A stretch of 47,663 nt of DNA from Candidatus Harrisonbacteria bacterium (GTDB lineage: Bacteria > Patescibacteriota > Minisyncoccia > UBA6257 > WO2-44-18): assembly GCA_016182295.1 (NCBI GenBank), contig JACOXP010000008.1, positions 1-47,663 of the forward strand, given 5' to 3'. Below are positions 181 to 42,304 of this stretch, piece by piece. The position numbers were made by a program, and so were the translations under genes. The notes below the pieces were generated by a model. That model saw only the letters and a program-made list of their open reading frames with translations. It did no database searches and was not told the DNA's origin. Position 1 is the stretch's first letter, and the number at the start of each line of letters is the position of its first letter.

Positions 181-513
181 CCATGATTTTAGTGAGGCCA
201 AGAATTCCTCGATCGCACTGTTATTGTAGCTTTCAAGAGGAAACACCGGTTTACCCCGCTGGATAGCTCGCTCACGATCTCGTTTGGCACCGTTTGAATG
301 TTTCCATCCTGGCAGTAGAACAAATGCTTCGCAAGAGAGATCATAGATAGCGTCGTCCAGAGCGTGATAGTAAGCTTCTGGTGCTTGAGCTAATCGTTCA
401 AATCGAGCTGTGTGGCTATGAGGCGCAAAGAAAGAAAATGTTTCTACTAACGACGAGAAGTTAATTGGCGAGCCTGTTAATTTCGGGTAAAATATAGATA
501 TTATATGTTGAAT
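166..513 (-). pseudogene. DUF4406-like (nucleoside 2-deoxyribosyltransferase-like) reading frame lacking a canonical start codon
   Basis: A 115-codon open frame missing from the ORF track because it has no ATG/GTG/TTG near its 5' end. The translation ..IISIFYPKLTGSPINFSS..FAPHSH..YYHALDDAIYDLSCEAFVLLPGWKHSNGAKRDRERAIQRGKPVF.. matches my memory of the DUF4406 pattern (PMTG...N..F, LLPGW..S.GA..E...A...G.PV). The frame runs into the ileS start region. Stop TAA at 168-166. Confidence 0.4.
465..493 (+). promoter_or_regulatory. Candidate ileS promoter (TTGGCG-17nt-TAAAAT)
   Basis: TTGGCG at 465-470, a 17-nt spacer, TAAAAT at 488-493. The ATG is at 505 with no Shine-Dalgarno sequence, which implies a very short leader. 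Confidence 0.4.
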
Positions 514-3500
514 TTACTGAAATCTTTTAATTTGCCTCAAATTGAGGAGAAAATTCTGAAATTTTGGAAAGAAGGCCGGGTTTTTGAAAGAATCCAAGAA
601 TTACGGAAAAAATCGAAAAAAGCCAAACCCTTTAAATTTTTTGAAGGCCCCCCAACCGCCAATGGGCGGCCGGGCATCCATCACGTGCTCGCTCGTTCTT
701 TCAAGGATGTCATTCCGAGATATAAAACAATGCGCGGGTTTTTTGTCTTAAGGCGCGCCGGTTGGGACACTCACGGTCTACCGGTTGAGCTGGAAGTTGA
801 AAAAAAACTTGGCATTAAAACCAAGCAGGAAATAGAAAAATTCGGAATCGTTGAATTTAATACCCAGGCGAAAATGTCCGTCTGGGCGTATAAAAGCGAT
901 TGGGAAAAATTAACCGAACGGATCGGTTTCTGGCTTGATTTTAACGACCCTTACATTACCTACAACAATCCATACATTGAGAGTTTGTGGTGGATCTTTT
1001 CAGAAATAGAGCGGCGGGGCCATTTAAAAAAACTTCACAAAATCGTTCCCTGGTGTCCGCGTTGCCAAACGCCGCTTTCGAGCCACGAGCTTGGACAGCC
1101 GGGCGCGTATCGGACCACCAAAGATCCTTCCGTCTATATCAAATTAAAAATTAAAAATTCAAAAACCAACGATTGCCTGCTGATCTGGACGACAACGCCC
1201 TGGACTTTGCCTGGCAACGTGGCGGTCGCGGTTAATCCGAAACTCACCTACACAAAATATAAGGTTGGCGGTGAATATCTTTGGAGCTATAACGTTCCCC
1301 CGAAGACCGAAAAGGGAGAACCAGAAGTCGTTGAAAAGCTTTCCGGAAAAAAATTGGCCGGCCTGGAATACGAACCGCCCTATCCGAATGAAGGCGCTCA
1401 TAAAGTCATCGAAGCTGATTTTGTTTCCACGGAGGAAGGAACCGGTCTGGTGCATATTGCGCCGGCTTATGGAGAAGACGATTTGCGCGTCGCCGGCCAT
1501 GGGCCGATTCCAATGAGCGTTGATGATCGGGGGATTATGAAAAAGTCCGCCAGCTGGCGGATTCCCGGAGAAGGAAAATTTGTAAAAGAGGCGGACAGTG
1601 ACATTATCGCCGATCTTGAAAAAAGAAAAATTTTGCATTCAAGCGGTTTAATAGAGCACGAATATCCTTTTTGCTGGCGTTGCTCCACCCCGCTTTTGTA
1701 TTTTGCCCGCAAGTCCTGGTTTATCGTAATGTCGAAACTGCGGAGCGAAATGCTTTCGGCCAACAAAAAAATAAACTGGATTCCGGAGCATATCAAGGAA
1801 GGGAGATTTGGAGAATGGCTGCGCGACCTCAAAGATTGGTCGATTTCCCGCAACCGCTACTGGGGAACGCCGCTGCCGATTTGGGAATGCGAAAAGGACG
1901 AGACGCACCGTTTGTTTATCGGCTCGCTCGAAGATCTGAATAAGCACGCTTTCAATAAAAATCGATTTTTTATCGCCAGACATTCCGAGGCCGAGCATAA
2001 TATTAGCGGCACGTTGGCCAACGGTTCCGAAAGTGGCAATAATGCTTCCAAATTGACCGAGAAAGGCGTCAAACAAGCCGAAAGTATGGCTAAAGAATTC
2101 ACGAAGAAAAAGATAGATGTTATTTATCATTCGCCCTTGGCTCGGACAAAAGAAGTCGCGCAAATTATTGCCAAAGCGACGGGGGCGGAAACCATTGCCG
2201 ATAAAAGATTAACCGAAGTCAACGGAGGGAGTTTCAATAACCGTTCGGTTGGAGAATTCGGCGCGTTTTTCAAAAGCAAGATGGAGAGATTTTCCAAAAC
2301 GCCGCCCGGGGGAGAAAATTACTCCGATATTAAAAAGAGAATGCTTGAAGCGATTCGTGATATTAACCAGAAACACAACGAAAAAAATATATTAATTGTC
2401 AGTCACGGCGACCCGCTTTTTGTGCTTGAGGGCGCAGTACAGGGCCTTTCCAATGAAAAAATATCTGAAATTTCGAGCTTGCCGGTGGCCGGCTGGAAAG
2501 AAATAAGCTCCAATAATTGGCCGCTTAACAAAGACGGCGAACTTGATTTGCACCGGCCGTTCATTGACGCCGTTTGTCTTCAATGCCCCGATTGCGAAGC
2601 GAAAATGAACCGCGTTAAAGATGTTGCCGATGCTTGGTTTGATTCAGGCGCGATGCCTTTTGCCCAGTGGCATTACCCTTTTGAGAATAAACAACTGATC
2701 GACAAAGGCGAGCAGTTTCCGGCTGATTACATAACCGAAGGCATTGACCAGACGCGCGGCTGGTTCTACACGCTTCTCGCGGTTTCTATTCTTTTGAAGC
2801 GGGGCGCGCCGTATAAAAATGTCATTTCGCTCGGATTGTTGCTCGATAAACATGGCCAGAAAATGTCTAAATCCAAAGGCAATATTGTTGATCCATGGGA
2901 AATGATTAATAAATACGGCGCCGACGTTCTTCGTTGGTATTTTTTCACGATCAATCCACCCGGAGAGCCGAAGCGCTTTGACGAAAACGATTTGCGTAAA
3001 ACCGTAAACAAATTGTTTATGATTATTTATAACTCGTTTGTTTTTTACAAAACTTACGGCGAGGGAAGCTCCGAACCAATTCCAGCGCTCGATAATTGGG
3101 TTTTAGCCCGATTGCAGGAAACAATCGCGCAAGTTACCGAAGCGATGGATAAGTACGAAATAGGAGACGCGGCAAAATCAATCGAAAGATTAGTTGATGA
3201 TTTTTCCCGATGGTATATTCGCCGCTCCAGAAAAAATGTTTCCGGCCAAACTTTAAATAAAGTGCTTTCAATGTTGAGCAAATTAATCGCCCCCCTCACC
3301 CCGTTTTTCGCCGACGCTCTTTGGCAGTCTCTTGGCAATCGAGAATCCGTTCATTCTGCCGATTGGCCGGAAGTTGAGAAAAAACTTTTTGATAAAAAAT
3401 TACTGGGAGCAATGGCGGAAGTGAGAAAATTAGCCAGTTTGGCTTTAGCGGAACGAGAAAAAGCGGGCATTAAAGTTCGTCAACCTTTGCGAGAGTTAAG

Positions 3501-3897
3501 AATCAAAAATCAAGAATTAAAAAAATCCGATAAAAGTTTGCTGGATATTTTAGCCGATGAAGTAAATGTAAAAACGGTATCTTTTGATGATAAAATCACC
3601 GCTGAAATCGAGCTCGATCTTAAAATCACTCCGGAGCTCAAAAATGAAGGCATTCTCCGCGACTTGATCCGGATGGTTCAGGGATTGCGGCACGACGCGG
3701 GTTATCAGCCGCATAACAAAATCGCTCTGATGGCGGAATTGCCAAGCGATATTTTCAAAGTAGCGCAGGCGAATCTTGCCGAATTTAAAAAAGCCGTGAA
3801 TGCCCAAGAGGTTGAATTTAAACGAGATAAATTCGACGCTGAAATTTCCACCAATCTTGATGGCCAGAAAATTTGGCTGGCGGTGCGAAAAGTTTAG
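505..3897 (+). CDS. ileS: Isoleucyl-tRNA synthetase (Thermus/archaeal-like type) carrying an internal histidine-phosphatase domain
   Basis: 1130 aa. Class I signatures PPTANGRPGIHH and KMSKSKGN; WDTHGLPVE; WCPRCQTPLS; DWSISRNRYWGTPLPIW; EGIDQTRGWFY. From memory it is colinear with Thermus IleRS except for the 1942-2544 insert. Confidence 0.95.
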   Translation: MLNLLKSFNLPQIEEKILKFWKEGRVFERIQELRKKSKKAKPFKFFEGPPTANGRPGIHHVLARSFKDVIPRYKTMRGFFVLRRAGWDTHGLPVELEVEKKLGIKTKQEIEKFGIVEFNTQAKMSVWAYKSDWEKLTERIGFWLDFNDPYITYNNPYIESLWWIFSEIERRGHLKKLHKIVPWCPRCQTPLSSHELGQPGAYRTTKDPSVYIKLKIKNSKTNDCLLIWTTTPWTLPGNVAVAVNPKLTYTKYKVGGEYLWSYNVPPKTEKGEPEVVEKLSGKKLAGLEYEPPYPNEGAHKVIEADFVSTEEGTGLVHIAPAYGEDDLRVAGHGPIPMSVDDRGIMKKSASWRIPGEGKFVKEADSDIIADLEKRKILHSSGLIEHEYPFCWRCSTPLLYFARKSWFIVMSKLRSEMLSANKKINWIPEHIKEGRFGEWLRDLKDWSISRNRYWGTPLPIWECEKDETHRLFIGSLEDLNKHAFNKNRFFIARHSEAEHNISGTLANGSESGNNASKLTEKGVKQAESMAKEFTKKKIDVIYHSPLARTKEVAQIIAKATGAETIADKRLTEVNGGSFNNRSVGEFGAFFKSKMERFSKTPPGGENYSDIKKRMLEAIRDINQKHNEKNILIVSHGDPLFVLEGAVQGLSNEKISEISSLPVAGWKEISSNNWPLNKDGELDLHRPFIDAVCLQCPDCEAKMNRVKDVADAWFDSGAMPFAQWHYPFENKQLIDKGEQFPADYITEGIDQTRGWFYTLLAVSILLKRGAPYKNVISLGLLLDKHGQKMSKSKGNIVDPWEMINKYGADVLRWYFFTINPPGEPKRFDENDLRKTVNKLFMIIYNSFVFYKTYGEGSSEPIPALDNWVLARLQETIAQVTEAMDKYEIGDAAKSIERLVDDFSRWYIRRSRKNVSGQTLNKVLSMLSKLIAPLTPFFADALWQSLGNRESVHSADWPEVEKKLFDKKLLGAMAEVRKLASLALAEREKAGIKVRQPLRELRIKNQELKKSDKSLLDILADEVNVKTVSFDDKITAEIELDLKITPELKNEGILRDLIRMVQGLRHDAGYQPHNKIALMAELPSDIFKVAQANLAEFKKAVNAQEVEFKRDKFDAEISTNLDGQKIWLAVRKV
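1942..2544 (+). other. In-frame histidine phosphatase (PGAM/His_Phos_1-like) domain inserted in IleRS
   Basis: Motifs RHSEAEHN, LTEKGVKQA, SPLARTKEVA, TEVNGGSF, PPGGENYSDI and IVSHGD lie between GSLEDLN and LDLHRPFIDA. Confidence 0.75.
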
Positions 3898-3933
3898 GAG
3901 TACACTTAAAACAGCTTTTTAAGGAATGGGAAA

Positions 3934-4287
3934 ATGGATGAAAATCCAGATTCTGGCGGGTCTTTGGGCTTATTTTTGTGGGAAACTCTACTGACAATCG
4001 CCGTCTGCCTTTTAGCCGCGGTTGTTATGGTCCGTGTTTTTGGTGGAGCTGCCGGCGCTGTAGTCGCGGCGATCTGGGGAATATTTTGGGGAATTTTTGC
4101 CGGTGTGCGCGTGTCGAGCTCAACTTTGGCGGCGGGATTTCTCGGTTTGATAATAGTGATTATCTGCGGCTTAGTATTTTTCTCATACGACCAGACCAAC
4201 GGTTTGATAGTTGTTATTTTCGCGTCTTTAAGCGCCGCTTCCGCGTTATTTGTGCGCATGCACATTGGAAATAATAAATTTGTTTGA
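3934..4287 (+). CDS. Small integral membrane protein, function unknown
   Basis: 117 aa with 3-4 hydrophobic segments (LLTIAVCLLAAVVMV, AVVAAIWGIFWGIFAGV, FLGLIIVIICGLVFF, LIVVIFASLSAASALF). AAGGAA lies 7 nt upstream of the ATG, and a terminator follows. The overlapping minus-strand ORF 3906-4265 is judged a shadow. Confidence 0.55.
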   Translation: MDENPDSGGSLGLFLWETLLTIAVCLLAAVVMVRVFGGAAGAVVAAIWGIFWGIFAGVRVSSSTLAAGFLGLIIVIICGLVFFSYDQTNGLIVVIFASLSAASALFVRMHIGNNKFV

Positions 4288-4292
4288 ACAAC

Positions 4293-4318
4293 AAAAGACC
4301 CCAGAACTGGGGTCCTTT
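4293..4318. terminator. Bidirectional rho-independent terminator between the membrane protein gene and trpS
   Basis: GACCCCAG-AA-CTGGGGTC hairpin (4297-4314), flanked by AAAA on the left and TTT on the right. On the minus strand it is followed by TTTTGTTGTT. Confidence 0.7.
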
Positions 4319-5303
4319 ATATTGCCAGGCCGATTTTCTCTTTCACCTCCGCTATTTTTTTTCCGGAGATTCTGGCGGCTTGCGCCGAACCGCGCTGGAG
4401 AATTTTTTTAATTTTAGCCGGTTTTTTTAATAATTCCATTTTCTTGCGGCGAAGCGGAGCGAAATGGCTCGCGACTAATTTAGCAAATGCCTTTTTAAAT
4501 TCGAAATAACCCCTGTTGCCGAATTGCCGCTCAATTTTTTCCATCGATTCGCCGGAAAGAGATTTATAAATCATCAGCATATTGGAAACAGCCGGTTTTT
4601 CTTTGGGATTGTACGCGATTTTACTTCCGGAATCGGTCACGGCGCCGCGGATTTTTTGATTGATTACCTCCGGAGAATCGTCAATAAAAAGACAGCCGGC
4701 CGATCGGGACTTGGACATTTTTTTAGTCGGATCATCCAAACTCATGATTCGGGGTGTTTCAGTCATCAATGCTTGCGGCTCCCTAAAAATAGATCCAAAT
4801 TTTTTATTGAATTTGCGCGCCAAAGTGCGAGCGAGTTCCAAGTGTTGAAGTTGGTCTTCTCCAACAGGTACCTGGTTGGCATCGTAGAGCAAGATATCGG
4901 CCGCCATCAATACGGGATAAGTAAACAACCCCACATTGGCCGACTCCTGGTGCGATCCGCTTTTTTCTTTAAACTGCGTCATCCGGCGAAGTTCGCCGAA
5001 GGGCGTAATAGAATTTAAGATCCAACTAAGCTCGGTGTGAGCCGACACTTGCGACTGAAGAAAAATCAGCGATTTTTTTGGATTTAATCCGGCGGCGATA
5101 TAATTCGCGGCCAGTTCAATAATCTGGTGAGGTTTTTCTTTGGGGACGAATTCTTCAGTCAGAGAATGAAGATCGGCAATGAAAAAATGGCAATTATATT
5201 TGCCCGAATTCTGCAGATCGACAAAATTTTTGAGAGCGCCGAGATAATTTCCCAAGTGAAGGCGTCCGGTTGGCTGGATTCCAGAAATAAGAACGGGCTT
5301 CAT
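4317..5303 (-). CDS. trpS: Tryptophanyl-tRNA synthetase
   Basis: 328 aa. SGIQPTGRLHLGNYLG (HIGH region), KMSKS, and the typical TrpRS length. Confidence 0.95.
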   Translation of the reverse strand: MKPVLISGIQPTGRLHLGNYLGALKNFVDLQNSGKYNCHFFIADLHSLTEEFVPKEKPHQIIELAANYIAAGLNPKKSLIFLQSQVSAHTELSWILNSITPFGELRRMTQFKEKSGSHQESANVGLFTYPVLMAADILLYDANQVPVGEDQLQHLELARTLARKFNKKFGSIFREPQALMTETPRIMSLDDPTKKMSKSRSAGCLFIDDSPEVINQKIRGAVTDSGSKIAYNPKEKPAVSNMLMIYKSLSGESMEKIERQFGNRGYFEFKKAFAKLVASHFAPLRRKKMELLKKPAKIKKILQRGSAQAARISGKKIAEVKEKIGLAI

Positions 5304-7018
5304 ACTTCAATTATAACCGGAATAATCATCGGCCGGCGCTGGGTTTTGGTGAAAAGAAGCTGGCCAAGCTGGTCGCGGAACAAAGTTTTGAGATAATCCG
5401 GCTCGATATCGCGATGGCCAGTAACTCGACCCAAAATAGCCCGAATTTTTTTGCGAACGTCATCAAGGAGTCCTTGATTTTCCTTAAGGTAAATGAAACC
5501 GCGGGAAATAATATCCGGATTTTTGAGAAGCCGGCGATTGTGGCGGTCAAGGGTCGTAATGACTACCACCATGCCCTCTTTCGCGAGCAGACGACGGTCG
5601 CGAAGCACAATTTCGCCTACGTCACCGACGCCAAGTCCGTCAACCATCACGTATGACGCGTCAACGGTTTTATCGGTTACTTGAAAAGTATCTTTCGTAA
5701 GTTCGCATACTTGGCCGTTATCCACCAAAATCGCGTTTTCTTTTGGAATACCGACTGATTGAGCGTGCTTGGCGGATGCCGCGCGGAAGAAATAATATCC
5801 GTGCACCGGCACGACGAATTTCGGCTTGGAAAGTTTTATCACCAATTTCAAATCTTCAGCCGGTCCGTGACCGCTGGCGTGGATATCCAGAAATCGGGAA
5901 TTGTAGACCTGATCAACTTGGCGAGCGATGTTATCTTGCAGGGTCTGGACGCTTCGTTCATTGCCCGGAACAACGGAGGAAGAAAAAATCACCATATCGC
6001 TTCTCTTCAAAGTAATATAGCGATGTTCGCCGTTGGCAATTCTGGTAAGGCCGGCGTTTGGTTCGCCTTGTCCGCCAGTGGTTAAAATCATAACTTTGTC
6101 GTCTTTGTGGCTGTTTACTTCTTCCAGTTGGATAAAAATATCCTTTTTGGTTTTGATGTAGCCCATATTCACCGCGATTTGGATATTGTCTTTCATAGTC
6201 CTGCCGTTGAGGGCGATTTTTCGTCCGAGGCGTTCGGCAATTTTAATAATTTCGGCAAGACGCGTTACCAGCGAGCCGAATGTCGCGACAATAATCCGAC
6301 CGTTCGCTTTTTGGAAAAGTTCCTCGAGATTTTTTTCGACAATCCTTTCGGAAGTGGCGTGGCCTTCTTCTTGGGCGTTAGTACTGTCCAAAAAAATCGA
6401 ATGGACCCCCATCTTGCCGATATGCTCAAAAATTTTTAAATGTTCTTTTTCCGGCTTTCCGTTTATGTCAGTTTCCAAACGGAAATCGCCAAAATGGACT
6501 AGTTTGCCGACTGGCGTGTCTAAAATTAATCCGATGGAATCGGGAATGGTGTGGCCGACATCGAAAAACTCGGCTTGAAAGTATTCGCCGATTCGCAATT
6601 TGTCGCCGTTTTTAACAACCTGGAATCTCGGTTTCGGCAGATTGCGGAATTCTTGGAATCGTTTTTCCACCAGCGCCCGCGTGAAAGCGGAGGTGTAAAT
6701 GATCGGATTGCCTATCTTTTCGATTATATAAGGAAGGGAGTGAATGTGATCGTAGTGACCGTGAGTGAGGATCAAGCCGCGGATGTTTTCTCTCTTTTTC
6801 TCTAAGCTCGAAACATTTGGGATAATGTAGTCAATGCCGGGAGTTTCCTCTTCCGGAAACTGGATGCCAACGTCAACCATCACAATCTCGTTGCCGTACT
6901 CAAAATAAGCGCAGTTGCGCCCGACTTCCTCAAGTCCGCCCAAAGGGACAAACTTAAGAACTTCTTTTTCGGAAGAAGCTTCTTTTACTTTTGGTTTGGG
7001 TTTAAGAACTCTAATCAT
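5300..7018 (-). CDS. rnj: Ribonuclease J (metallo-beta-lactamase / beta-CASP)
   Basis: 572 aa. LGGLEEVGRNC.., THGHYDHIH and the beta-CASP region. The stop region overlaps the trpS start by 4 nt. Confidence 0.9.
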   Translation of the reverse strand: MIRVLKPKPKVKEASSEKEVLKFVPLGGLEEVGRNCAYFEYGNEIVMVDVGIQFPEEETPGIDYIIPNVSSLEKKRENIRGLILTHGHYDHIHSLPYIIEKIGNPIIYTSAFTRALVEKRFQEFRNLPKPRFQVVKNGDKLRIGEYFQAEFFDVGHTIPDSIGLILDTPVGKLVHFGDFRLETDINGKPEKEHLKIFEHIGKMGVHSIFLDSTNAQEEGHATSERIVEKNLEELFQKANGRIIVATFGSLVTRLAEIIKIAERLGRKIALNGRTMKDNIQIAVNMGYIKTKKDIFIQLEEVNSHKDDKVMILTTGGQGEPNAGLTRIANGEHRYITLKRSDMVIFSSSVVPGNERSVQTLQDNIARQVDQVYNSRFLDIHASGHGPAEDLKLVIKLSKPKFVVPVHGYYFFRAASAKHAQSVGIPKENAILVDNGQVCELTKDTFQVTDKTVDASYVMVDGLGVGDVGEIVLRDRRLLAKEGMVVVITTLDRHNRRLLKNPDIISRGFIYLKENQGLLDDVRKKIRAILGRVTGHRDIEPDYLKTLFRDQLGQLLFTKTQRRPMIIPVIIEV

Positions 7019-7083
7019 TCAATTGTGTGGGCAGAGAGGGATTCGCCGCCCAAATTTTATTTGGGCGAGCCTCGCCCATCGAT

Positions 7084-7344
7084 TTAATCGATGGGCGGGA
7101 ACCCTTTTTGAAAATATTGTTTTAATTTTCTCCGACCGGCGCCACTTTTCCAATAAAGCTCTCGTTTTTTAGCCTCCTGCAGATTATCGTAGCATTCTGT
7201 AAAAAGAACTTTTAGTGGCCTTCTATGCTTTGTAGCCATAACGTTTCCAGAATTGTGCTCCTTCAACCTCGATCGCACGTCTTTTGTGTGACCGATATAC
7301 GTTTTCTTGTCCTTTAAACTCTGGAGAATGTATGTCCAAAACAT
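7084..7344 (-). CDS. GIY-YIG nuclease family protein (UPF0213-like)
   Basis: 86 aa. TYILQS..KTYIGHTKDVRSRLKEHNSG...KRELYWKSG. The ATG lies 6 nt downstream of the 3' end of tRNA-Leu. Confidence 0.8.
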   Translation of the reverse strand: MFWTYILQSLKDKKTYIGHTKDVRSRLKEHNSGNVMATKHRRPLKVLFTECYDNLQEAKKRELYWKSGAGRRKLKQYFQKGFPPID

Positions 7345-7350
7345 AGTTTG

Positions 7351-7434
7351 TGCCCCCCAGAGGATTTGAACCTCTACACCCTTGCGGGTACACGTACCTG
7401 AAACGTGTGCGTCTGCCGATTCCGCCAGGGGGGC
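7351..7434 (-). tRNA. tRNA-Leu (anticodon CAG), class II long variable arm, no encoded CCA
   Basis: Hand fold: GCCCCCC / GCGG-AATCGGCAG-ACGC / CACGT-TTCAGGT-ACGTG / long variable arm / AGAGG-TTCAAAT-CCTCT / GGGGGGC-A. Confidence 0.85.
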
Positions 7435-7539
7435 TCCACAAAGAAACTCAGATTGCCGATGCCCGCTAATTATTAACTTTATAAGAAATTCAACGTTGCT
7501 TTAATGATATATCCAAACTTATCAAAAGTCAAATTCCGG

Positions 7540-7611
7540 TGCCGGCGGCAAGAATTGAACTTGCGACCTTGGTCTTATGAAAACCCTGCTCTGCCACTGA
7601 GCTACGCCGGC
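7540..7611 (-). tRNA. tRNA with CAU anticodon, elongator type (Met; Ile2-lysidine cannot be excluded)
   Basis: Hand fold: GCCGGCG TA GCTC-AGTGGCA-GAGC A GGGTT-TTCATAA-GACCA AGGTC GCAAG-TTCAATT-CTTGC CGCCGGC A. The 1:72 pair is G:C. There is one G-A mismatch at 27:43. Confidence 0.75.
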
Positions 7612-7631
7612 GACTTTCCTTCGAAAGCATG

Positions 7632-7704
7632 TTGCGGGGACAGGATTTGCACATGTGACCTCCAGGTTATGGGCCTGGCGAGCTAACTACTGCTCTACCC
7701 CGCT
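7632..7704 (-). tRNA. Initiator-like tRNA (CAU) with atypical loops
   Basis: Hand fold: A-GCGGGG TA GAGC-AGTAGTTA-GCTC G CCAGG-CCCATAA-CCTGG AGGTC ACATG-TGCAAAT-CCTGT CCCCGC-A A. Initiator marks present: a 1:72 mismatch (A x A) and A11:U24. Odd features: C33, no GG in the D-loop, G at T-loop position 55, and one T-stem mismatch. Confidence 0.6.
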
Positions 7705-7709
7705 TGCCT

Positions 7710-7738
7710 ATATTATCACAAAAATTGGCCAAAGGCAA
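7710..7738 (-). promoter_or_regulatory. Promoter of the tRNA cluster (TTGCCT-17nt-TAATAT with TGn)
   Basis: The minus strand reads TTGCCT (7738-7733), a 17-nt spacer ending in TGA, then TAATAT (7715-7710). The mature 5' end of the tRNA lies 6 nt downstream. Confidence 0.5.
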
Positions 7739-7778
7739 TGAGCTGATTTTTTGCCGTTTAATGTTAGAATGAAGCTAA

Positions 7779-8510
7779 ATGTCTAAGTTGATAATCGCCA
7801 ACTGGAAAATGAACCCGCGGACGCTTACTGAAGCGAGAGAGCTTGCCAAAGCGAGCGATATTGAAGGTTTAATAATCTGCCCGCCATTTCCTTTTTTGGA
7901 AGAGGTGGGCGCTACTATTAGGAAGGCGAAACTGGGAGCGCAGGACCTTTTTTGGGGGGAGGGGGGCGCTTATACCGGAGAAGTTTCGGCAGACGAACTT
8001 AAAGATATCGGCGTGGAATATGTAATAATCGGACATTCTGAACGTCGTCAAAATTTGGGGGAGACCGATGAAATGGTCGCTAAAAAAATCGCCGCCGCTC
8101 TCAAAGCCGGATTAAAACCGATTTTGTGCGTCGGGGAAACTCGCGCTGAACGAGATGCCGGAAAAACCGGATCAGTAGTGCAGCGGGAATTGGAAACGGG
8201 ACTTTTTTTGACCAAAAATCAGAAGTCGTCAATCGTTGTCGCCTATGAACCAATTTGGGCGATTGGCACCGGTACGCCGGATACCCCCGAAAGCATGCTG
8301 GAAATGGTAGAATTTATAAAGAACGTATTGAACCCTCAATCCCGCGCTTTAACCTTCAGCGTTATTTATGGAGGGTCTGTCACAAGCAAAAACGCGGAAA
8401 GTTTTTTCAGACATAAAGAAATCAACGGCGCGCTGGTCGGCGGCGCCAGTTTAAAAGGAGAAGAAATTAAAAAAATAGTCGAAATAGGAAAAAAATATGA
8501 GTCCCGTTAG
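7779..8510 (+). CDS. tpiA: Triosephosphate isomerase
   Basis: 243 aa. IIANWKMN, IIGHSERR, YEPIWAIGTG, YGGSV. Confidence 0.95.
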   Translation: MSKLIIANWKMNPRTLTEARELAKASDIEGLIICPPFPFLEEVGATIRKAKLGAQDLFWGEGGAYTGEVSADELKDIGVEYVIIGHSERRQNLGETDEMVAKKIAAALKAGLKPILCVGETRAERDAGKTGSVVQRELETGLFLTKNQKSSIVVAYEPIWAIGTGTPDTPESMLEMVEFIKNVLNPQSRALTFSVIYGGSVTSKNAESFFRHKEINGALVGGASLKGEEIKKIVEIGKKYESR

Positions 8511-8617
8511 AACCAACTAAGCTATGAAAATCATAATTAACAAAGTAAAAAGGTCAGATATCAATAAACGCCAGTCGGCCGAGTCACGGTCGCCTTTGGC
8601 GACCTGGTTCTAACGGG

Positions 8618-9382
8618 ATGAGTAAACAAGAATTGGCAAAAAATTGGTTTTGGGTTTTACTGGATATCGCTTTGGTAATCGTGATTGTTTTAGGCGTTGC
8701 GTCCATAAAATCTCTTTGGAAATACGGCCAGTCCGTTTTTCCGGCTCGCACGATTAACGTGAGCGCGGAAGGAAAAGTCGTGGTGGCGCCGGATATCGCG
8801 ACCTTGTCATTTTCCGTTGTTACCGAAGGAGCCGATCCAAGCGTGATTCAAGAGAAGAATACCGAAAAAATTAACAAAGTTATCGAGTTTATAAAAGCCG
8901 AGGGAATTGAATCAAAAGATATAAAAACCAGCGGCTACAACCTTAATCCCGTATATGAATATGACCGATCCAAGCAAAGAAGCGAGATCGTCCGTTATTC
9001 TTTGACCCAAACGGTTATTGTAAAAATTCGCGACTTTGACAAAGTCGGCCCGATAATCGCCGGTCTTACTCCTCGGGGCGTTAATCGAATCAGCGGATTG
9101 AGTTTTGATATTGAAGATCCTGATAAATTCCTGAATGAAGCCCGCAAAGAAGCGTTTGAAAAAGCCCGCGCCAAAGCGGAAACGATGGCGGCGGCGGTGG
9201 GAGTAAGAGTTAAAAGAGTTATAACCTTTAACGAATATGGTGGCGGTTATCCGATTCCTGTTTATGAACGCGCTGTCGCGTTGGGAGTGGGAGGCGATGT
9301 AGCGGCCCCAACACCTCCGACAATCGAGCCGGGAAGCCAAGAAGTGACTGTGCAAGTTAACGTAGTTTACGAAATTTACTAG
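8618..9382 (+). CDS. SIMPL/BP26-family (DUF541) protein with N-terminal membrane anchor
   Basis: 254 aa. TM helix, then VVAPDIATLSFSVVTEG...TSGYNLNPVY...YSLTQTVIVKIRD...IEPGSQEVTVQVNVVYEI, typical of SIMPL proteins. Confidence 0.75.
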   Translation: MSKQELAKNWFWVLLDIALVIVIVLGVASIKSLWKYGQSVFPARTINVSAEGKVVVAPDIATLSFSVVTEGADPSVIQEKNTEKINKVIEFIKAEGIESKDIKTSGYNLNPVYEYDRSKQRSEIVRYSLTQTVIVKIRDFDKVGPIIAGLTPRGVNRISGLSFDIEDPDKFLNEARKEAFEKARAKAETMAAAVGVRVKRVITFNEYGGGYPIPVYERAVALGVGGDVAAPTPPTIEPGSQEVTVQVNVVYEIY

Positions 9383-9383
9383 A

Positions 9384-9974
9384 GTGCAGGAAACTCAGCG
9401 TCCAACGAATCGCCGCCATCTTCGCGAAATAAAACATCATCTTATTCGCAATTTTATTGTTTTTGCGGCGAGCGTGGTTTTGGCGGTGGTTTTTGTGCGA
9501 TCGGGATTGGTTGAAGATCTGCTGATTTACATTCATGACTTTTATATCCTCGGCGCGCTTGTTGCGGGGTTTTTCTTGGCGTTTGTTTTGACTGTCGGTC
9601 CGGCGGCGGCGACTCTCATTGGAATTGGCGAAAATGTTCCAGTGGTGCTAATCGCGTTAATCGGCGCTTTGGGTTCGGTGGTGGCCAACCTCGCGCTTTT
9701 TCAGTTCGTTAAAAAAGAAATTTCCGACGATTTCATAGCTTACTTTGAAAGTACAAGAATGAAACCGCTCGCGGAATTTTTAAAACTCCAAGCTGTTCGG
9801 TGGATTTTACCAATTATCGGAGCGATTATTGTTGCCTCGCCCCTTCCGGACGAAATAGGTCTGGCTATGATCGGAGTATCGAAAATTAAAACTATAATTT
9901 TCGTGCCGGTGATGTATCTGCTTCATTTTTTCGGAATTTTGGTGATAGTTTCCGCCGGACGGGCCATATTTTAG
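9384..9974 (+). CDS. Integral membrane protein, function unknown
   Basis: 196 aa with a GTG start 2 nt after the previous stop and about 5 hydrophobic helices. I recognise no motif. Confidence 0.55.
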   Translation: MQETQRPTNRRHLREIKHHLIRNFIVFAASVVLAVVFVRSGLVEDLLIYIHDFYILGALVAGFFLAFVLTVGPAAATLIGIGENVPVVLIALIGALGSVVANLALFQFVKKEISDDFIAYFESTRMKPLAEFLKLQAVRWILPIIGAIIVASPLPDEIGLAMIGVSKIKTIIFVPVMYLLHFFGILVIVSAGRAIF

Positions 9975-10080
9975 GTTGTGGAAAACATAAGTTGCGCAGT
10001 CCAGGCATATGCTATACTGGAGAATACACGTTGAAATCAGCCAGCCGATAAATAATTTTCGGCGGCGATTCTAATCAAAA

Positions 10081-10108
10081 AGAGCGTTGTGAGGACGCTC
10101 TTTTTGAT
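10081..10108 (+). terminator. Rho-independent terminator upstream of rmuC
   Basis: AGAGCGT-TGTGAGG-ACGCTCT hairpin followed by TTTTTGATTT. Confidence 0.6.
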
Positions 10109-10121
10109 TTATAGTGAGGTT

Positions 10122-11153
10122 ATGGAATTGCTTCTCGGAATAATTTTAGCGGTTGTTGTCGCGGGGTTCGCGATTTTAATTTTACGAAAACCGAAGGAAA
10201 AATCCCCGGACCAATCTTTGCTGATGCTGCAAAATCAAGTAAACGAAATTTCGCGGGTGCTCGATTCCAAACTTGGCGAGTCGGCAAAAGTGATGCAGCA
10301 GCAATTTGGCCAGAGCGCTCGGATCATTCGTGATGTTACGGAAAAACTGACCCGTCTTGATGAAACCAATAAGCAAGTAGTGGGTTTTGCCGACCAACTG
10401 AAAAGTCTGCAGGATATTTTAAAAAATCCCAAACAACGCGGCATTCTCGGCGAGTATTATCTCGAAACAGTTTTGAAAAATGTTTTGCCACCCGGCGCTT
10501 ATCAGATGCAGTATTCTTTCAAAGACGGCGTAATCGTGGACGCGGCGGTTTTTGTCGGCAAGCAGGTGATTCCGGTGGATTCCAAATTCAGTTTAGAAAA
10601 TTACAATCGTTTTCTGGAAGCTCGAGACGACGAAGGCCGAAGAAAACATGAAGTGGCTTTTGTTAACGATCTTAAAAATCGCATTGAGGAGACCTCAAAA
10701 TATGTAAAACCGCAGGAAAATACTACCGATTTCGCTTTTATGTTCATCCCGTCCGAGGCAGTTTATTACGATCTTTTGATCAACAAGGTGGGATCGCTAG
10801 CCGAAGATCGCAATCTGCTGGCGCACGCGGCGCAAAAGAAAGTGGTGGTGGTTTCGCCAACCTCATTTCTAGCTTACCTCCAGACGGTTTTGCAGGGTCT
10901 TCGCAACCAGAAAATTTCTGAACAAGCCCAAGATATTGTCAAACAAGTGGATAATCTGGGCCGCCACCTCATTAAATATGACGATTATATGCAGAGACTT
11001 GGCAAAAATCTCGGCACCAGCGTCAGTATGTATAACAGCGCCTATAAAGAGTTCGCCAAAATTGACAAAGATGTGCTGAAGATCACCGGCGAAGCCATGG
11101 AAATAGAGCCGCAATTGATCGAAAAACCCGCGGAAGTCGAGGAACTTAACTAA
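10122..11153 (+). CDS. rmuC: DNA recombination protein RmuC
   Basis: N-terminal TM segment, coiled-coil region, and a C-terminal nuclease-like core (FAFMFIPSEAVYYDLL, VVVVSPTSFLAYLQ). I moved the start to ATG 10122, which has GAGG 4 nt upstream, because the track's GTG 10089 lies inside the terminator loop. Confidence 0.85.
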   Translation: MELLLGIILAVVVAGFAILILRKPKEKSPDQSLLMLQNQVNEISRVLDSKLGESAKVMQQQFGQSARIIRDVTEKLTRLDETNKQVVGFADQLKSLQDILKNPKQRGILGEYYLETVLKNVLPPGAYQMQYSFKDGVIVDAAVFVGKQVIPVDSKFSLENYNRFLEARDDEGRRKHEVAFVNDLKNRIEETSKYVKPQENTTDFAFMFIPSEAVYYDLLINKVGSLAEDRNLLAHAAQKKVVVVSPTSFLAYLQTVLQGLRNQKISEQAQDIVKQVDNLGRHLIKYDDYMQRLGKNLGTSVSMYNSAYKEFAKIDKDVLKITGEAMEIEPQLIEKPAEVEELN

Positions 11154-12666: not shown

Positions 12667-13869
12667 ATGTTCGACCTAAAAACACTAAAACGGGCAATTG
12701 ATCAAATTGCCGAAGAAAAAGGAATAGAAGCAGGCAAGATTTTAGAGGCCATCGAGTCGTCTATCGCCGCCGCTTATAAAAGAGAGTATTGCCAGAAAGG
12801 CGAGGTTGTGCGCGCCAAAATGGACATTAAAACCGGCGCTTTAAAATTCTGGAAAGTAAAAACCGTGGTTGATGAAACAACGGTGCGTTTTATTGAGGAG
12901 GGGGAACTCTCTGCCGCTGAAGCTACGGATAGCAGAGGAGGGGAAGCCACCGGCGAAGAGAAATTGCCGCGCTATAATCCGGAGCGTCATCTTACTCTTG
13001 AAGAGGCCAAAAAAGAAAAATCGGGAGCGGTGGTTGGCGAAGAAATAGAATTTCCGCTTGAGGTTAAGGAAGATTTTGGCCGCATCGCCGCTCAGACGGC
13101 TAAACAGGTTATTTTGCAACGTTTGCGCGAGGCCGAGCGCGATTCCGTCCTCAATGAATTTAAAAGCAAGGAGGGCGAGATTGTTAGCGGTATTATCCAG
13201 CGCTTTGAGCGAGGCAATGTTTTTATTGACCTTGGCCGCGCTACCGGAGTGATGTTTCAAAATGAGTCCATCCCAACCGAGCATTATCGAGCGGGCGAAC
13301 GGATGCGCTTTTATGTTTTGGCTGTCCAATCCGATACTCGAATGCCGGGAATAATTTTATCCCGCTCCCACCCGAGATTTGTTAGCAGGCTTTTTTCAAT
13401 TGAGGTGCCGGAAATCGCCGACGGCGTAATTGAAATCAAGGGTATCGCTCGCGAAGCGGGAAGCCGTACTAAAATCGCGGTTGTTTCCAATACCGATGGC
13501 GTGGATCCGGTTGGGTCTTGCGTTGGTCAGAGAGGCACGCGGGTAATGGCGGTTTCCAATGAACTTGGCCAAGAAAAACTGGATATTGTAGAATGGTCTG
13601 AAGATCCGTCAAAGTTTATTTCCAAAGCTATTTCTCCGGCTAAAGTTACCAGCGTTGAGATTTTGCCCCGACGCGAAGCGAGAATTTTCGTGCCGGACGA
13701 TCAGTTGAGTTTGGCAATTGGCAAAGGTGGTCAAAATGTTCGTCTCGCCGCTAAACTTACAGGTTGGAAAATAGACGTTCGCTCGGAAGCCAAACCGGAA
13801 GAATCCCAAGAAGGCGGCGTTGCCGCGGCGGTTCCACCGGAAGAATTGCCGACGAAGTCCGAAGAATAA
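12667..13869 (+). CDS. nusA: Transcription termination/antitermination factor NusA
   Basis: 400 aa. N-terminal domain, then S1 ([21 protein letters not shown]), then two KH domains ([13 protein letters not shown]; [23 protein letters not shown]). Confidence 0.95.
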
Positions 13870-13870
13870 A

Positions 13871-15835
13871 ATGCTTTACTATTTAATCTTCATTCCAATC
13901 GCCATCGCTATTTTATATAGCGGTTATATCATTTCTTGGCTTAAGGGGCGTTCGGCTGGCAATGAAAAGATGCGGGAAATTTCCCGCGCTATTCAGGAAG
14001 GATCGTCCGCTTATTTGAATCGTCAGTATAAAACGGTGGCTTTAGTTGCTATTCCGCTTTTCATTTTAATCAACTTTGGCTTGGGCACTTTGGCGGCCGT
14101 TGGATTTTTAGTAGGAGCTGTCGCTTCGGCGCTTGCCGGTTACATCGGCATGACTATCGCGGTCCGTTCCAACTCCAAAACCACCGAGGCCGCCAGTAAG
14201 GGATTGGCGCCGGCTTTGGCGCTGGCTTTCAAAGCGGGTTCAGTAACCGGCTATTTAGTCGTTGCTCTTGGACTTCTTGCCGTCGCCGGATTTTATTTTT
14301 TAACTAATGACCCCAAAGCTCTAATCGGGCTCGGTTTCGGCGCCAGCTTGATTTCTGTTTTTGCTCGCCTTGGCGGAGGCATTTTTACCAAAGCGGCAGA
14401 TGTTGGCACTGACTTGGTTGGAAAGGTGGAGGCCGGAATTCCGGAAGATGATCCGAGAAATCCGGGAGTTATTGCCGACAATGTCGGCGATAACGTCGGC
14501 GATTGCGCCGGTATGGCCGCCGATCTTTTTGAAACCTACGCCGTAACTTTGACCGCCGCGATGCTTTTAGGCATCGGTATCGGACTTGCCGGCGGCGCTT
14601 TGGCCTTCCCCTTGGTGCTTGGCGGTCTTGCCATAATCGCTTCTATTGTTGGTGGATTTTTTGCGAAGCTTGGAAAAAATCAGTCCATCATGGGCGCTCT
14701 TTATAAAGCGCTCGCCGTTTCACTTATTGTTTCCGTTGGATTATTTTATTGGGCTTCTTCCGTTTTTTTTCCGGAAAACGCCCTGAATATATTTATGGCT
14801 TCGGTTGTCGGATTGGCCGTTACGGTTTTGATGGTTTTGGCGACCGATTATTACACAGCCAAAAAATATCGGCCGGTGCAAAAAATTGTTGAAGCGTCTA
14901 AATCCGGCCACGGCACCAATATTATTATGGGGATTGCCGTCGGAATGGAATCCACTCTTTTGCCGATTTTGATAATCGTTGCCGGAATTTTAGCCGCGTT
15001 TTCCTTTGCCGGCCTTTACGGCATTGCCATTGCCGCGACCGCGATGCTTTCGGTGGCGGGAATTGTTGTTGCCATTGATTCTTTTGGCCCGATTACCGAC
15101 AATGCCGGCGGAATCGCCGAAATGTCCGGCGCTCCGGAAGATGTCCGTAAGGTTACCGACGCTTTGGATGCTGTCGGCAATACCACTAAAGCGGTTACTA
15201 AAGGCTACGCGATCGCTTCGGCTGGACTCGCGGCTTTAGTTTTATTCGCCGGATATGTCGAGGAGCTGGGAGCGTTTATTGAAAACGTTGTTTTTGATTT
15301 GCAAAATCCGAGCGTGATTGTCGGGCTCTTCTTGGGAGCCGCAATCCCGTTTCTTTTTGGTTCAATCGCCATGCGTTCAGTCGGAGAAGCGGCCGGCGCG
15401 GTAGTTGAAGAAATTCGCCGGCAGTTTAGAGAAATTCCTGGTCTGATGGAAGGCAAAGCCAAGCCGGATTACGGCCGCGCCGTTGATATCGTCACTCAAG
15501 CGGCGCTCAAAAAGATGGTTGTGCCTGCGATTTTGCCGGTAGCGGCGGTTTTATTGGTTGGAATCTTTCTTGGAGCTCAAGCTCTCGGCGGCTTCTTGAT
15601 GGGCGCGATTGTTTCCGGTCTTTTCGTGGCGCTTTCAATGACTTCCGGAGGCGCCGCTTGGGACAATGCCAAAAAATCCATTGAAGCCGCTGGACAAAAA
15701 GGCACCGACTGGCACAAGGCGGCTGTCACCGGCGACACGGTTGGCGATCCATATAAAGATACGGCGGGTCCGGCCATTAACCCCCTCATCAAAGTAATTA
15801 ATATCGTGGCCCTTTTGATAGTACCGTTTCTATAA
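13871..15835 (+). CDS. hppA: Membrane-bound proton-translocating pyrophosphatase, K+-independent type
   Basis: 654 aa from ATG 13871; the track ORF starts earlier, inside nus[63 protein letters not shown] carries the Lys that I recall marks K+-independent enzymes. Confidence 0.9.
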
Positions 15836-33856: not shown

Positions 33857-33928
33857 CGGCCTGTAGCTCAGTGGTAGAGCAGTGATCTTATAAGTCACGG
33901 GTCGCAGGTTCGATCCCTGCCAGGCCGA
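33857..33928 (+). tRNA. tRNA-Ile with a genomically encoded UAU anticodon
   Basis: Hand fold: CGGCCTG TA GCTC-AGTGGTA-GAGC A GTGAT-CTTATAA-GTCAC GGGTC GCAGG-TTCGATC-CCTGC CAGGCCG A. The anticodon loop CTTATAA gives TAT at positions 34-36. Confidence 0.8.
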
Positions 33929-33995
33929 CACTTGACAAAAGCCTTTTTATATGGTAACTTAACAATCAGAACACCTTTTATTTGAAGGAGGGTTT

Positions 33996-42092: not shown

Positions 42093-42249
42093 GTGTGGAT
42101 AACTTGAGTTGCGCGACGGCGTTACCGTGTTATCATCACTATTAGTAAATTCAAAACTAAATATCGAGTTCTCGCATATCGCGAGAAAATAATGCGGACG
42201 AAATGTTCGCAAATGTAAGTCTGTTCCAGTTCTTTCCTTCAACATTTAA

Positions 42250-42279
42250 GGGCGACCCCAGGTCGCCCTTTTTCTTTTG
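42250..42279 (+). terminator. Rho-independent terminator 26 nt upstream of valS
   Basis: GGGCGACC-CCA-GGTCGCCC followed by TTTTTCTTTTG. Confidence 0.75.
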
Positions 42280-42304
42280 TCTAAAAATTTATAGAATAAG
42301 TGAG

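Follow-up and report, generated by a model that had tools for sequence, protein, structure and literature searches.

Why should an enzyme that charges tRNA with isoleucine carry a phosphatase inside its own chain? The question is raised by the ileS gene on a 47,663-nucleotide stretch of DNA from a Candidatus Harrisonbacteria bacterium (Patescibacteriota; GenBank assembly GCA_016182295.1, contig JACOXP010000008.1, positions 1 to 47,663 of the forward strand), the whole of which is called the window here. An earlier reading of the DNA letters (the original prediction) had claimed that the isoleucyl-tRNA synthetase (IleRS) encoded by this gene contains a complete histidine phosphatase, nested in frame. 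Aminoacyl-tRNA synthetases (aaRSs) are among the best-studied enzymes, and their accessory catalytic domains, for example those for editing, have each brought to light a further level of quality control in translation. From the results below we propose, with a probability of about 0.6, that the phosphatase and IleRS are functionally coupled, the phosphatase being a phosphomonoesterase that would act on a small nucleotide-like ligand or on the tRNA end. Any specific substrate is proposed with low confidence.

Profile searches (PF00300 and TIGR00392), alignment and Foldseek all supported a complete histidine phosphatase, in frame, inside an IleRS of the Thermus/archaeal type (type 2). The protein of the open reading frame at 505-3897 scored 854.5 bits against TIGR00392, the equivalog model for IleRS (cutoff 621.4), and this match was split in two, the first part ending near residue 486 and the second beginning near residue 680. 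Pfam gave a likewise split tRNA-synt_1 with His_Phos_1 between its halves, together with Anticodon_1 and DUF5915. As the original prediction had expected, the excised segment was recognized by PF00300, with E=1e-34 and 120.3 bits (cutoff 21.7) over profile positions 2-171 of 194. The six motifs quoted for it were all present, namely RHSEAEHN (residues 492-499), LTEKGVKQA (517-525), SPLARTKEVA (543-552), TEVNGGSF (570-577), PPGGENYSDI (600-609) and IVSHGD (631-636). The segment 1942-2544 is in frame without stops, and its composition is like that of the host gene, with a GC content of 0.441 compared to 0.453 for the remainder of the gene and 0.447 for the window.

Among database sequences, the 120 closest to the window protein share 54-70% identity with it, are 1119-1219 residues long and all contain PF00300 as well as the IleRS domains; their named sources are metagenome-assembled genomes of Patescibacteria/Parcubacteria type. 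In a MAFFT alignment of these homologs the catalytic signature was intact, with R492, H493, R547 and H634 present in 120/120 and E571 in 119/120, and T518, G521, S543, G575, E604 and R612 were also invariant. The Arg-His, Arg, Glu and His set aligns to those of PspA (4ij5) and PhoE (1ebb), including the RHxE motif. The catalytic residues are likewise kept over the 55 nested and 20 upstream forms of the genome-collection loci described below. The mean identity to the window protein was 49% for the insert, 64% for the IleRS body, 75% for the HUP core and 49% for the C-terminal domain. These identities and the invariant residues suggest purifying selection on the insert, about as strong as is usual for a peripheral domain, so that it is constrained and not frozen.

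The full-length AlphaFold2 model, computed from a 62-sequence alignment, had a mean predicted local distance difference test score (pLDDT) of 89.4 and a predicted template modelling score (pTM) of 0.82, and most blocks of the insert were at 91-96. Modelled alone, the insert had a pLDDT of 88.7 and a pTM of 0.87, and it is predicted to fold as an autonomous α/β lobe. Foldseek matched the IleRS body to 8c8v and 1ile with template modelling (TM) scores of 0.81 and 0.89, respectively, and found no PDB entry with the same IleRS-phosphatase architecture. The closest structures to the isolated domain were PspA, GpgP Rv2419c, the riboflavin-pathway HFP 9mmh, PhoE and CobC (TM 0.75-0.81). Judged from its sequence, the insert appears to be a branch-1 histidine phosphatase with a complete catalytic apparatus, and apparently an active one. 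A dPGM role was rejected (best dPGM_arch of the NF038349/TIGR01258 set, 99.5 versus 225 bits; TIGR01258, 31.4 versus 81.7). Since the dPGM equivalog cutoffs were missed, the term PGAM-like, which had been applied to the insert, describes its fold only and not membership among the mutases.

In the structure-sequence alignment, residues 12-483 of the window protein correspond to residues 12-479 of Priestia megaterium IleRS2 (PmIleRS2, 8c8w), and residues 677-1040 to 483-866. In Thermus thermophilus IleRS (1ile), the flanks of the insert map to residues 480 and 488. Since these flanks are nearly contiguous in the solved IleRSs, about 193 extra residues (approximately 484-676) replace a link of 3-7 residues. 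The claim of about 200 extra residues was thus borne out, but the normal spacing of 15-25 residues given in the original prediction was too wide. The insert lies in connective peptide 3 (CP3), which comes after the CCA-pocket linker and before the second half of the Rossmann (HUP) core. The linker LKDWSISRNRYWG precedes the insert by about 30 residues, and its yeast counterpart (ScIleRS 453-ARDWNVSRNRYWG-465) lines the pocket for the tRNA CCA end and reveromycin (PMC7955072). CP3 comprises residues 473-534 in CaIleRS and 459-526 in ScIleRS, bears a zinc motif in T. thermophilus, and differs in topology between IleRSs (PMC7191050). The catalytic HUP core of PmIleRS2 consists of residues 40-168 and 513-632 (PMC10485003), and by these bounds the insert is in the connective peptide between the core halves, outside the Rossmann fold. 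Nesting in the catalytic body, as originally claimed, therefore holds in so far as the phosphatase stands between the core halves, but the site itself is the CP3 zinc knuckle and not the Rossmann core. Among the 120 homologs, C462 of the knuckle is kept in 104, and Cys694 and Cys697 in all. The second Cys of the first knuckle half is replaced in the window protein by E466, in a column that is Cys in 93/120, and this loss could alter zinc binding in the window protein.

The nested form is not peculiar to one genome. One genome per bacterial or archaeal species (GTDB-based) was scanned with an alignment of four free-standing proteins as the query, which gave 80 loci, and these were classified by tblastn and blastp along with four metagenome loci and the window. 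The patterns used for searching bias this sample of loci, which should not be read as a census. The phosphatase was nested at the same site in 56 genes, including the window gene and the second gene of one locus (L012); beyond the window, the 80 genome-collection loci contained 55 nested genes in 54 other species genomes. The informative Patescibacteria-type genes numbered 76, of which 56 were nested and 20 were located upstream of an insert-less ileS. Three loci were uninformative (two cut by contig ends and one partial). Seven distant relatives from outside the Patescibacteria, 28-36% identical to the free-standing protein P0124 and including those of Clostridium, Cohnella, Tepidibacter, Dadabacteria and Aenigmatarchaeota, had no ileS nearby. 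The insert is hence widespread in Patescibacteria, and a chimeric assembly, against which the original prediction had cautioned, is excluded by its recurrence in well over 100 independent assemblies. One contig titled Acutalibacteraceae (Firmicutes; L047, JBAIWZ010000138.1) encodes a Patescibacteria-type nested IleRS about 50% identical to the window protein and is probably mis-binned.

When 1.84 billion cluster representatives were searched exhaustively, 1213 matched at E<=1e-10, and the best 150 of these were a mix of nested forms, fragments and free-standing forms. No other aaRS host was found among the 20 long proteins checked, all of which were IleRSs or IleRS fragments. Apparent variants without the editing domain (850-980 residues, with the phosphatase about 230 residues early) were rejected, since they are fragments that lack the N-terminal part and are otherwise colinear with the window protein. 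The number of phosphatase copies varied. Two tandem domains were present in some IleRSs, for example in proteins of 1419 and 1379 residues, and at least four in one IleRS fragment (tandem-domain relatives P0198, P0262, P0165, P0225, P0158 and P0268); free-standing proteins of about 410 residues also had two (P0200 and P0275). The R, H, R, E and H residues are kept by nearly every tandem copy. At locus L012 the ileS gene itself is in tandem (4516-8061 and 8065-11109), each copy with a nested phosphatase. Of the two, the second appears to have decayed: it has 321 bits on the ileS model (cutoff 621), RPG instead of RHG, and NINH where the signature motif should be. Duplication and subsequent degeneration may have been caught in progress in this pair. 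No remnants supporting this route, tandem duplication and complementary degeneration, were found in the upstream-type loci.

The second genetic format is a separate gene for a phosphatase of about 190 residues, situated upstream of an insert-less type-2 ileS in the 20 cases mentioned above. Free-standing His_Phos_1 proteins of about 190 residues, 38-52% identical to the insert, were obtained by a word-index search with the insert only (16 matches, no nested homologs), a search that is unusable for architecture counts. The insert and its free-standing relatives have the motifs K-x-PPGGEN, VKKR and ILIVSHGDPLW in common. The distance from the phosphatase stop to the ileS start was -11 to +30 nucleotides in 15 of the 20 upstream genes, with a median of +1 and several 4-nucleotide overlaps, and ranged from 43 nucleotides to 2.3 kb in the remaining five. 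The IleRSs of this format are bona fide ileS products (692 and 988 bits). Such abutting and overlapping genes imply translational coupling and co-production at a ratio of about 1:1.

The relationship of the two formats was examined in neighbour-joining trees, which are coarse, of the phosphatases and of the IleRS bodies. The ileS-linked phosphatases formed one clade apart from the generic His_Phos_1 outgroup, and nested and upstream forms interleaved in both trees. In the IleRS-body tree, one divergent clade, about 36-41% identical to the window IleRS, was all upstream-type, and the main clade was mostly nested with upstream cases scattered within it. The interleaving suggests that the link between the phosphatase and ileS was kept through several changes of format, and its retention in two genetic formats makes a functional partnership likely. 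Nested, coupled upstream and tandem forms together make a two-way "Rosetta stone" pattern, which is strong comparative evidence for partnership. In their genomic arrangement, the phosphatase and IleRS look like an obligate two-enzyme unit in Patescibacteria.

Several observations weigh against functional coupling, and some of them would suit a phosphatase that is only a passenger, i.e., a housekeeping sugar-phosphate, phosphoserine or nucleotide phosphatase that uses ileS, an essential and constitutively expressed gene, as an expression platform, with the CP3 loop merely permissive. Two to four tandem copies, with their catalytic residues kept, resemble a dosage effect, and a benefit from dosage explains them better than a single, precisely docked active site would. 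The correlation between IleRS and phosphatase distances was modest (Spearman 0.28). The recurrent neighbours of the module are L20, IF3, SmpB, ArgRS, IleRS and RecO, and also a class II aaRS; they make up a vertically inherited housekeeping cluster, so that part of the linkage could be synteny by descent. The closest solved relatives of the domain are metabolite phosphatases, and the variable topology of CP3 (PMC7191050) suggests that this region tolerates change. All NCBIfam phosphatase equivalogs were far below their cutoffs (PspA, 85.5 versus 350; CobC TIGR03162, 83.4 versus 162.9; SixA, 34.1 versus 74.5), and the substrate is not readable from the sequence. One clade member, P0125 (L004 2-946), shares 52% identity with the insert, is joined to a membrane domain of the MraY/WecA-like Glycos_transf_4 family and is not beside ileS; the gene that follows it on its partial contig is a different one, and P0125 is the sole counter-example seen. 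In the window protein itself the motif is RHS and not RHG, the only S at that position among 55 aligned nested domains, and this could affect its phosphatase activity.

Even so, we consider a passenger enzyme improbable, though the most durable of the alternatives. The linkage outlasts repeated switches between the nested and the upstream format, and it does so across two IleRS clades that are only about 36-40% identical. A gene merely carried along would not account well for the translational coupling to ileS of 15 of the 20 upstream genes. Among Patescibacteria with informative context, no clade member was found elsewhere than at ileS except the partial fusion P0125, and among the hosts checked the domain was in no other essential gene or aaRS.

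If the phosphatase is coupled to IleRS as we propose, the chemistry of the family suggests that His493 would attack a phosphomonoester to give a phospho-histidine intermediate, that Arg492, Arg547 and His634 would hold the phosphate, and that Glu571 would protonate the leaving group. The substrate might be a small, nucleotide-like phosphomonoester that is a ligand, a product or an inhibitor of IleRS, which we suggest with little certainty; candidates are an adenosine nucleotide with a 5', 3' or 2' phosphate and the phosphorylated 3' end of tRNA-Ile. Tethering would hold the phosphatase stoichiometric with, and close to, the synthetic site. The net positive charge per 100 residues is +8.5 in the upstream forms and +4.3 in the nested forms, compared to +2.1 in generic relatives and +2.2 in the IleRS body. 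This raised charge and the nearness to the CCA-pocket linker make a tRNA end or a nucleotide plausible as the substrate. A role as pyrophosphatase is unlikely to be needed, as the window encodes a membrane H+-pyrophosphatase (13820-15835, + strand).

A bolder and doubtful version of the coupling regards the phosphatase as a third catalytic site of IleRS, beside the synthetic and editing sites, that acts on a ligand of IleRS. Such a site might heal a phosphorylated or pyrophosphorylated CCA end of tRNA-Ile before charging, or it might destroy a phosphorylated inhibitor or by-product of adenosine-nucleotide type at the entrance to the active site. Where the phosphatase gene lies upstream of ileS, its product would carry out this reaction in a non-covalent complex with IleRS. 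If this third-site reading is true, it would mean a new quality-control or repair step inside an aaRS, in one amino acid system of a major bacterial radiation.

Healing of the tRNA 3' end specifically, coupled to aminoacylation, is less probable still. Toxins of the toxSAS type pyrophosphorylate the CCA end, and the reversal of that reaction would be analogous in purpose. The position of the insert in CP3, just past the linker of the CCA-end pocket, would suit such a role, as would the ileS-linked phosphatases being more basic than both their generic relatives and the IleRS body; a 1:1 stoichiometry would also be sensible for a synthetase-bound substrate. However, we know of no member of the histidine phosphatase superfamily that acts on RNA 3' ends, the structural neighbours of the insert are small-molecule enzymes, and there is no obvious reason why tRNA-Ile alone should need healing. 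Neither the insert nor two free-standing relatives had a match in PADLOC-DB 2.0 (E<=0.01). No conserved kinase, nucleotidyltransferase or toxin was found beside the module, where only housekeeping genes recur, and this context is not that of a conflict island. Taken together, the housekeeping context, the lack of a conserved kinase or toxin and the lack of PADLOC matches argue against a role in defence or immunity.

The same observations count against a protein phosphatase that keeps IleRS or a partner dephosphorylated, for example as immunity to HipA-like kinases, and we regard this as very improbable. HipA-like kinases inactivate class I synthetases, the superfamily includes the protein phosphatases SixA, Sts-1 and PGAM5, and an eraser tethered in cis would protect completely. 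The match to SixA was weak (34 bits versus a cutoff of 74.5), however, and the best structural matches are metabolite phosphatases and not SixA, Sts or PGAM5; moreover, a catalytic eraser needs neither 1:1 stoichiometry nor tandem amplification. The last alternative, an assembly artefact or a decaying domain kept as a structural spacer, could appeal to the RHS motif and the missing knuckle Cys of the window protein and to the clearly decayed second copy at L012 with its RPG, but it is effectively refuted for the family by the same architecture at the same site in more than 100 independent assemblies, the essentially invariant catalytic residues, the host-like composition and the confidently predicted fold. 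The choice left is between a new step in isoleucine charging or tRNA-Ile handling and the packing together of unrelated essential enzymes by genome-reduced symbionts.

As judged from its translation, the window IleRS retains the signature motif, the KMSKS loop, the editing-domain region and the anticodon-binding domains (Table 1). The signature motif is of the G/AxHH type in 105 of the 120 homologs and the canonical HxGH in 11; KMSKS is found in 115 and KMSKT in the other five. The region of the CP1 editing domain, residues 202-388, aligns to 1wk8, 1wny and 1ue0 (E=3e-34 to 5e-32). The G/AXHH type is common among IleRS2 and is tied to mupirocin hyper-resistance (PMC10485003). The models for the mupirocin-resistance IleRSs MupA and MupB (NF000257 and NF000258) were not reached, with 742.4 and 740.3 bits, each versus 1900. 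Rfam models matched six tRNAs only, and neither a T-box nor any other regulatory leader was found ahead of ileS. One tRNA-Ile encoded in the window has the anticodon UAU (33857-33929, + strand), and two adjacent tRNAs have CAU (7538-7611 and 7631-7704, both - strand). Bacteria usually read AUA by a CAU tRNA that is modified to lysidine, and a UAU tRNA-Ile is unusual; it may bear on tRNA recognition by the IleRS of this lineage.

The other genes of the window include those for a 744-residue class I aaRS with a match to the LeuRS-type editing domain and no phosphatase (42203-44437, + strand), TrpRS (4317-5303, - strand), RNase J (5300-7018, - strand) and triosephosphate isomerase (7779-8510, + strand). 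Directly 3' of ileS, at 3906-4287, there are two overlapping open reading frames of 117-119 residues on opposite strands. The one on the + strand, whose product is strongly hydrophobic, may encode a small membrane protein.

Table 1. Positions of the described features in the window, and spacing of the phosphatase gene and ileS at three metagenome loci.
Feature	Position	Strand	Basis or remark
ileS, 1130-residue type-2 IleRS with nested phosphatase	505..3897	+	Open reading frame and TIGR00392
Class I signature motif GIHH (residues 57-60; non-canonical G/AXHH type)	673..684	+	Translation
CP2-CP3 linker LKDWSISRNRYWG (residues 442-454)	1828..1866	+	Translation; homology to ScIleRS 453-ARDWNVSRNRYWG-465
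CP3 zinc knuckle, first half (WECEKDETH)	1882..1908	+	Aligns to T. thermophilus Cys461/Cys464
Insert as first delimited (residues 480-680, KHAFNK...NKDGEL)	1942..2544	+	In frame, no stops
Pfam His_Phos_1 domain (residues 489-657)	1969..2475	+	PF00300, E=3.6e-33 in the whole protein
RHS (RHG-type) motif, Arg492 and nucleophile His493	1978..1986	+	120/120 homologs
Arg547, second phosphate-pocket arginine	2143..2145	+	120/120; kept in all nested and upstream forms
Glu571, general acid (proton donor)	2215..2217	+	119/120; E or D in every ileS-linked form
His634, second catalytic histidine (IVSHGD)	2404..2406	+	120/120; kept in all forms
CP3 zinc knuckle, second half (CPDC; Cys694, Cys697)	2584..2595	+	Aligns to T. 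thermophilus Cys502/Cys504 segment
KMSKS loop, synthetic site (residues 786-790)	2860..2874	+	Translation
Anticodon-binding domain, Pfam Anticodon_1	3091..3492	+	PF08264, E=4.4e-31
Type-2 IleRS C-terminal domain, Pfam DUF5915	3547..3894	+	PF19302, E=3.2e-15
L001 (metagenome)			Phosphatase gene (194-residue product) and ileS start (960-residue IleRS) overlap by 11 nucleotides
L003 (metagenome)			Phosphatase gene and ileS overlap by 4 nucleotides
L002 (metagenome)			Phosphatase gene about 2 kb upstream of ileS

Full-text literature searches found no description of an IleRS, or of any aaRS, with a histidine phosphatase, including in Patescibacteria, in agreement with the claim that none was known. 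The phosphatase is mentioned neither in a 2026 preprint on the evolution of IleRS domains nor in the 2023 paper on the PmIleRS2 structure (PMC10485003). The public records of the nested orthologs, such as KKW47148.1, OGZ01657.1, TSC89743.1 and OGY58935.1, are named "Isoleucine--tRNA ligase", "hypothetical protein" or "class I tRNA ligase family protein". The original prediction would have been weakened by an insert that was both common and already annotated in characterised IleRS families; the insert did prove common, but without any annotation or characterisation. The partnership of phosphatase and IleRS is thus without a described counterpart, its sequences having been public for years under uninformative names, and the current names hide the second domain of these IleRSs.

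Two curated protein families come near to this architecture. In NF040702 (ileS_w_GNAT), which sets a precedent, an IleRS likewise carries a further enzyme domain, but this domain is a GNAT and not a phosphatase. The window protein matches this model over the shared IleRS segments only and does not reach its cutoff (286.6 versus 1999). NF005567, the actinobacterial bifunctional RNase H/acid phosphatase, combines RNase HI with a CobC-like His_Phos_1 domain, and its phosphatase part matches at 80 bits, below the 326-bit cutoff. In that family the phosphatase is at about residues 175-330 of 378 and looks C-terminally fused, not nested.

Compared to the solved IleRSs, the window protein is colinear with PmIleRS2 (8c8u, 8c8v and 8c8w) and 1ile over the whole body (E about 1e-234), and it also has the DUF5915 domain, KMSKS loop and G/AXHH motif of type-2 enzymes. 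Where those two proteins have a CP3 link of 3-7 residues, the window protein has the phosphatase of about 193 residues. Conversely, a stretch of about 70 residues in 8c8w (approximately 866-937) has no counterpart in the window protein, where it would fall near residues 1035-1040. This stretch is probably the INS subdomain in ARD2 named in the 2026 preprint, and the window IleRS appears to be without INS. On the phosphatase side, PspA (4ij5), PhoE/YhfR (1h2e and 1ebb), GpgP Rv2419c (4pz9), HFP (9mmh) and CobC (6nru) have the same fold as the insert, the same catalytic constellation in alignment and a similar size (about 190-210 residues). The insert is only 20-25% identical to these solved branch-1 phosphatases, and, unlike them, the insert and the rest of the ileS-linked clade carry K-x-PPGGEN, VKKR and HGDPLW, motifs confined to this clade.

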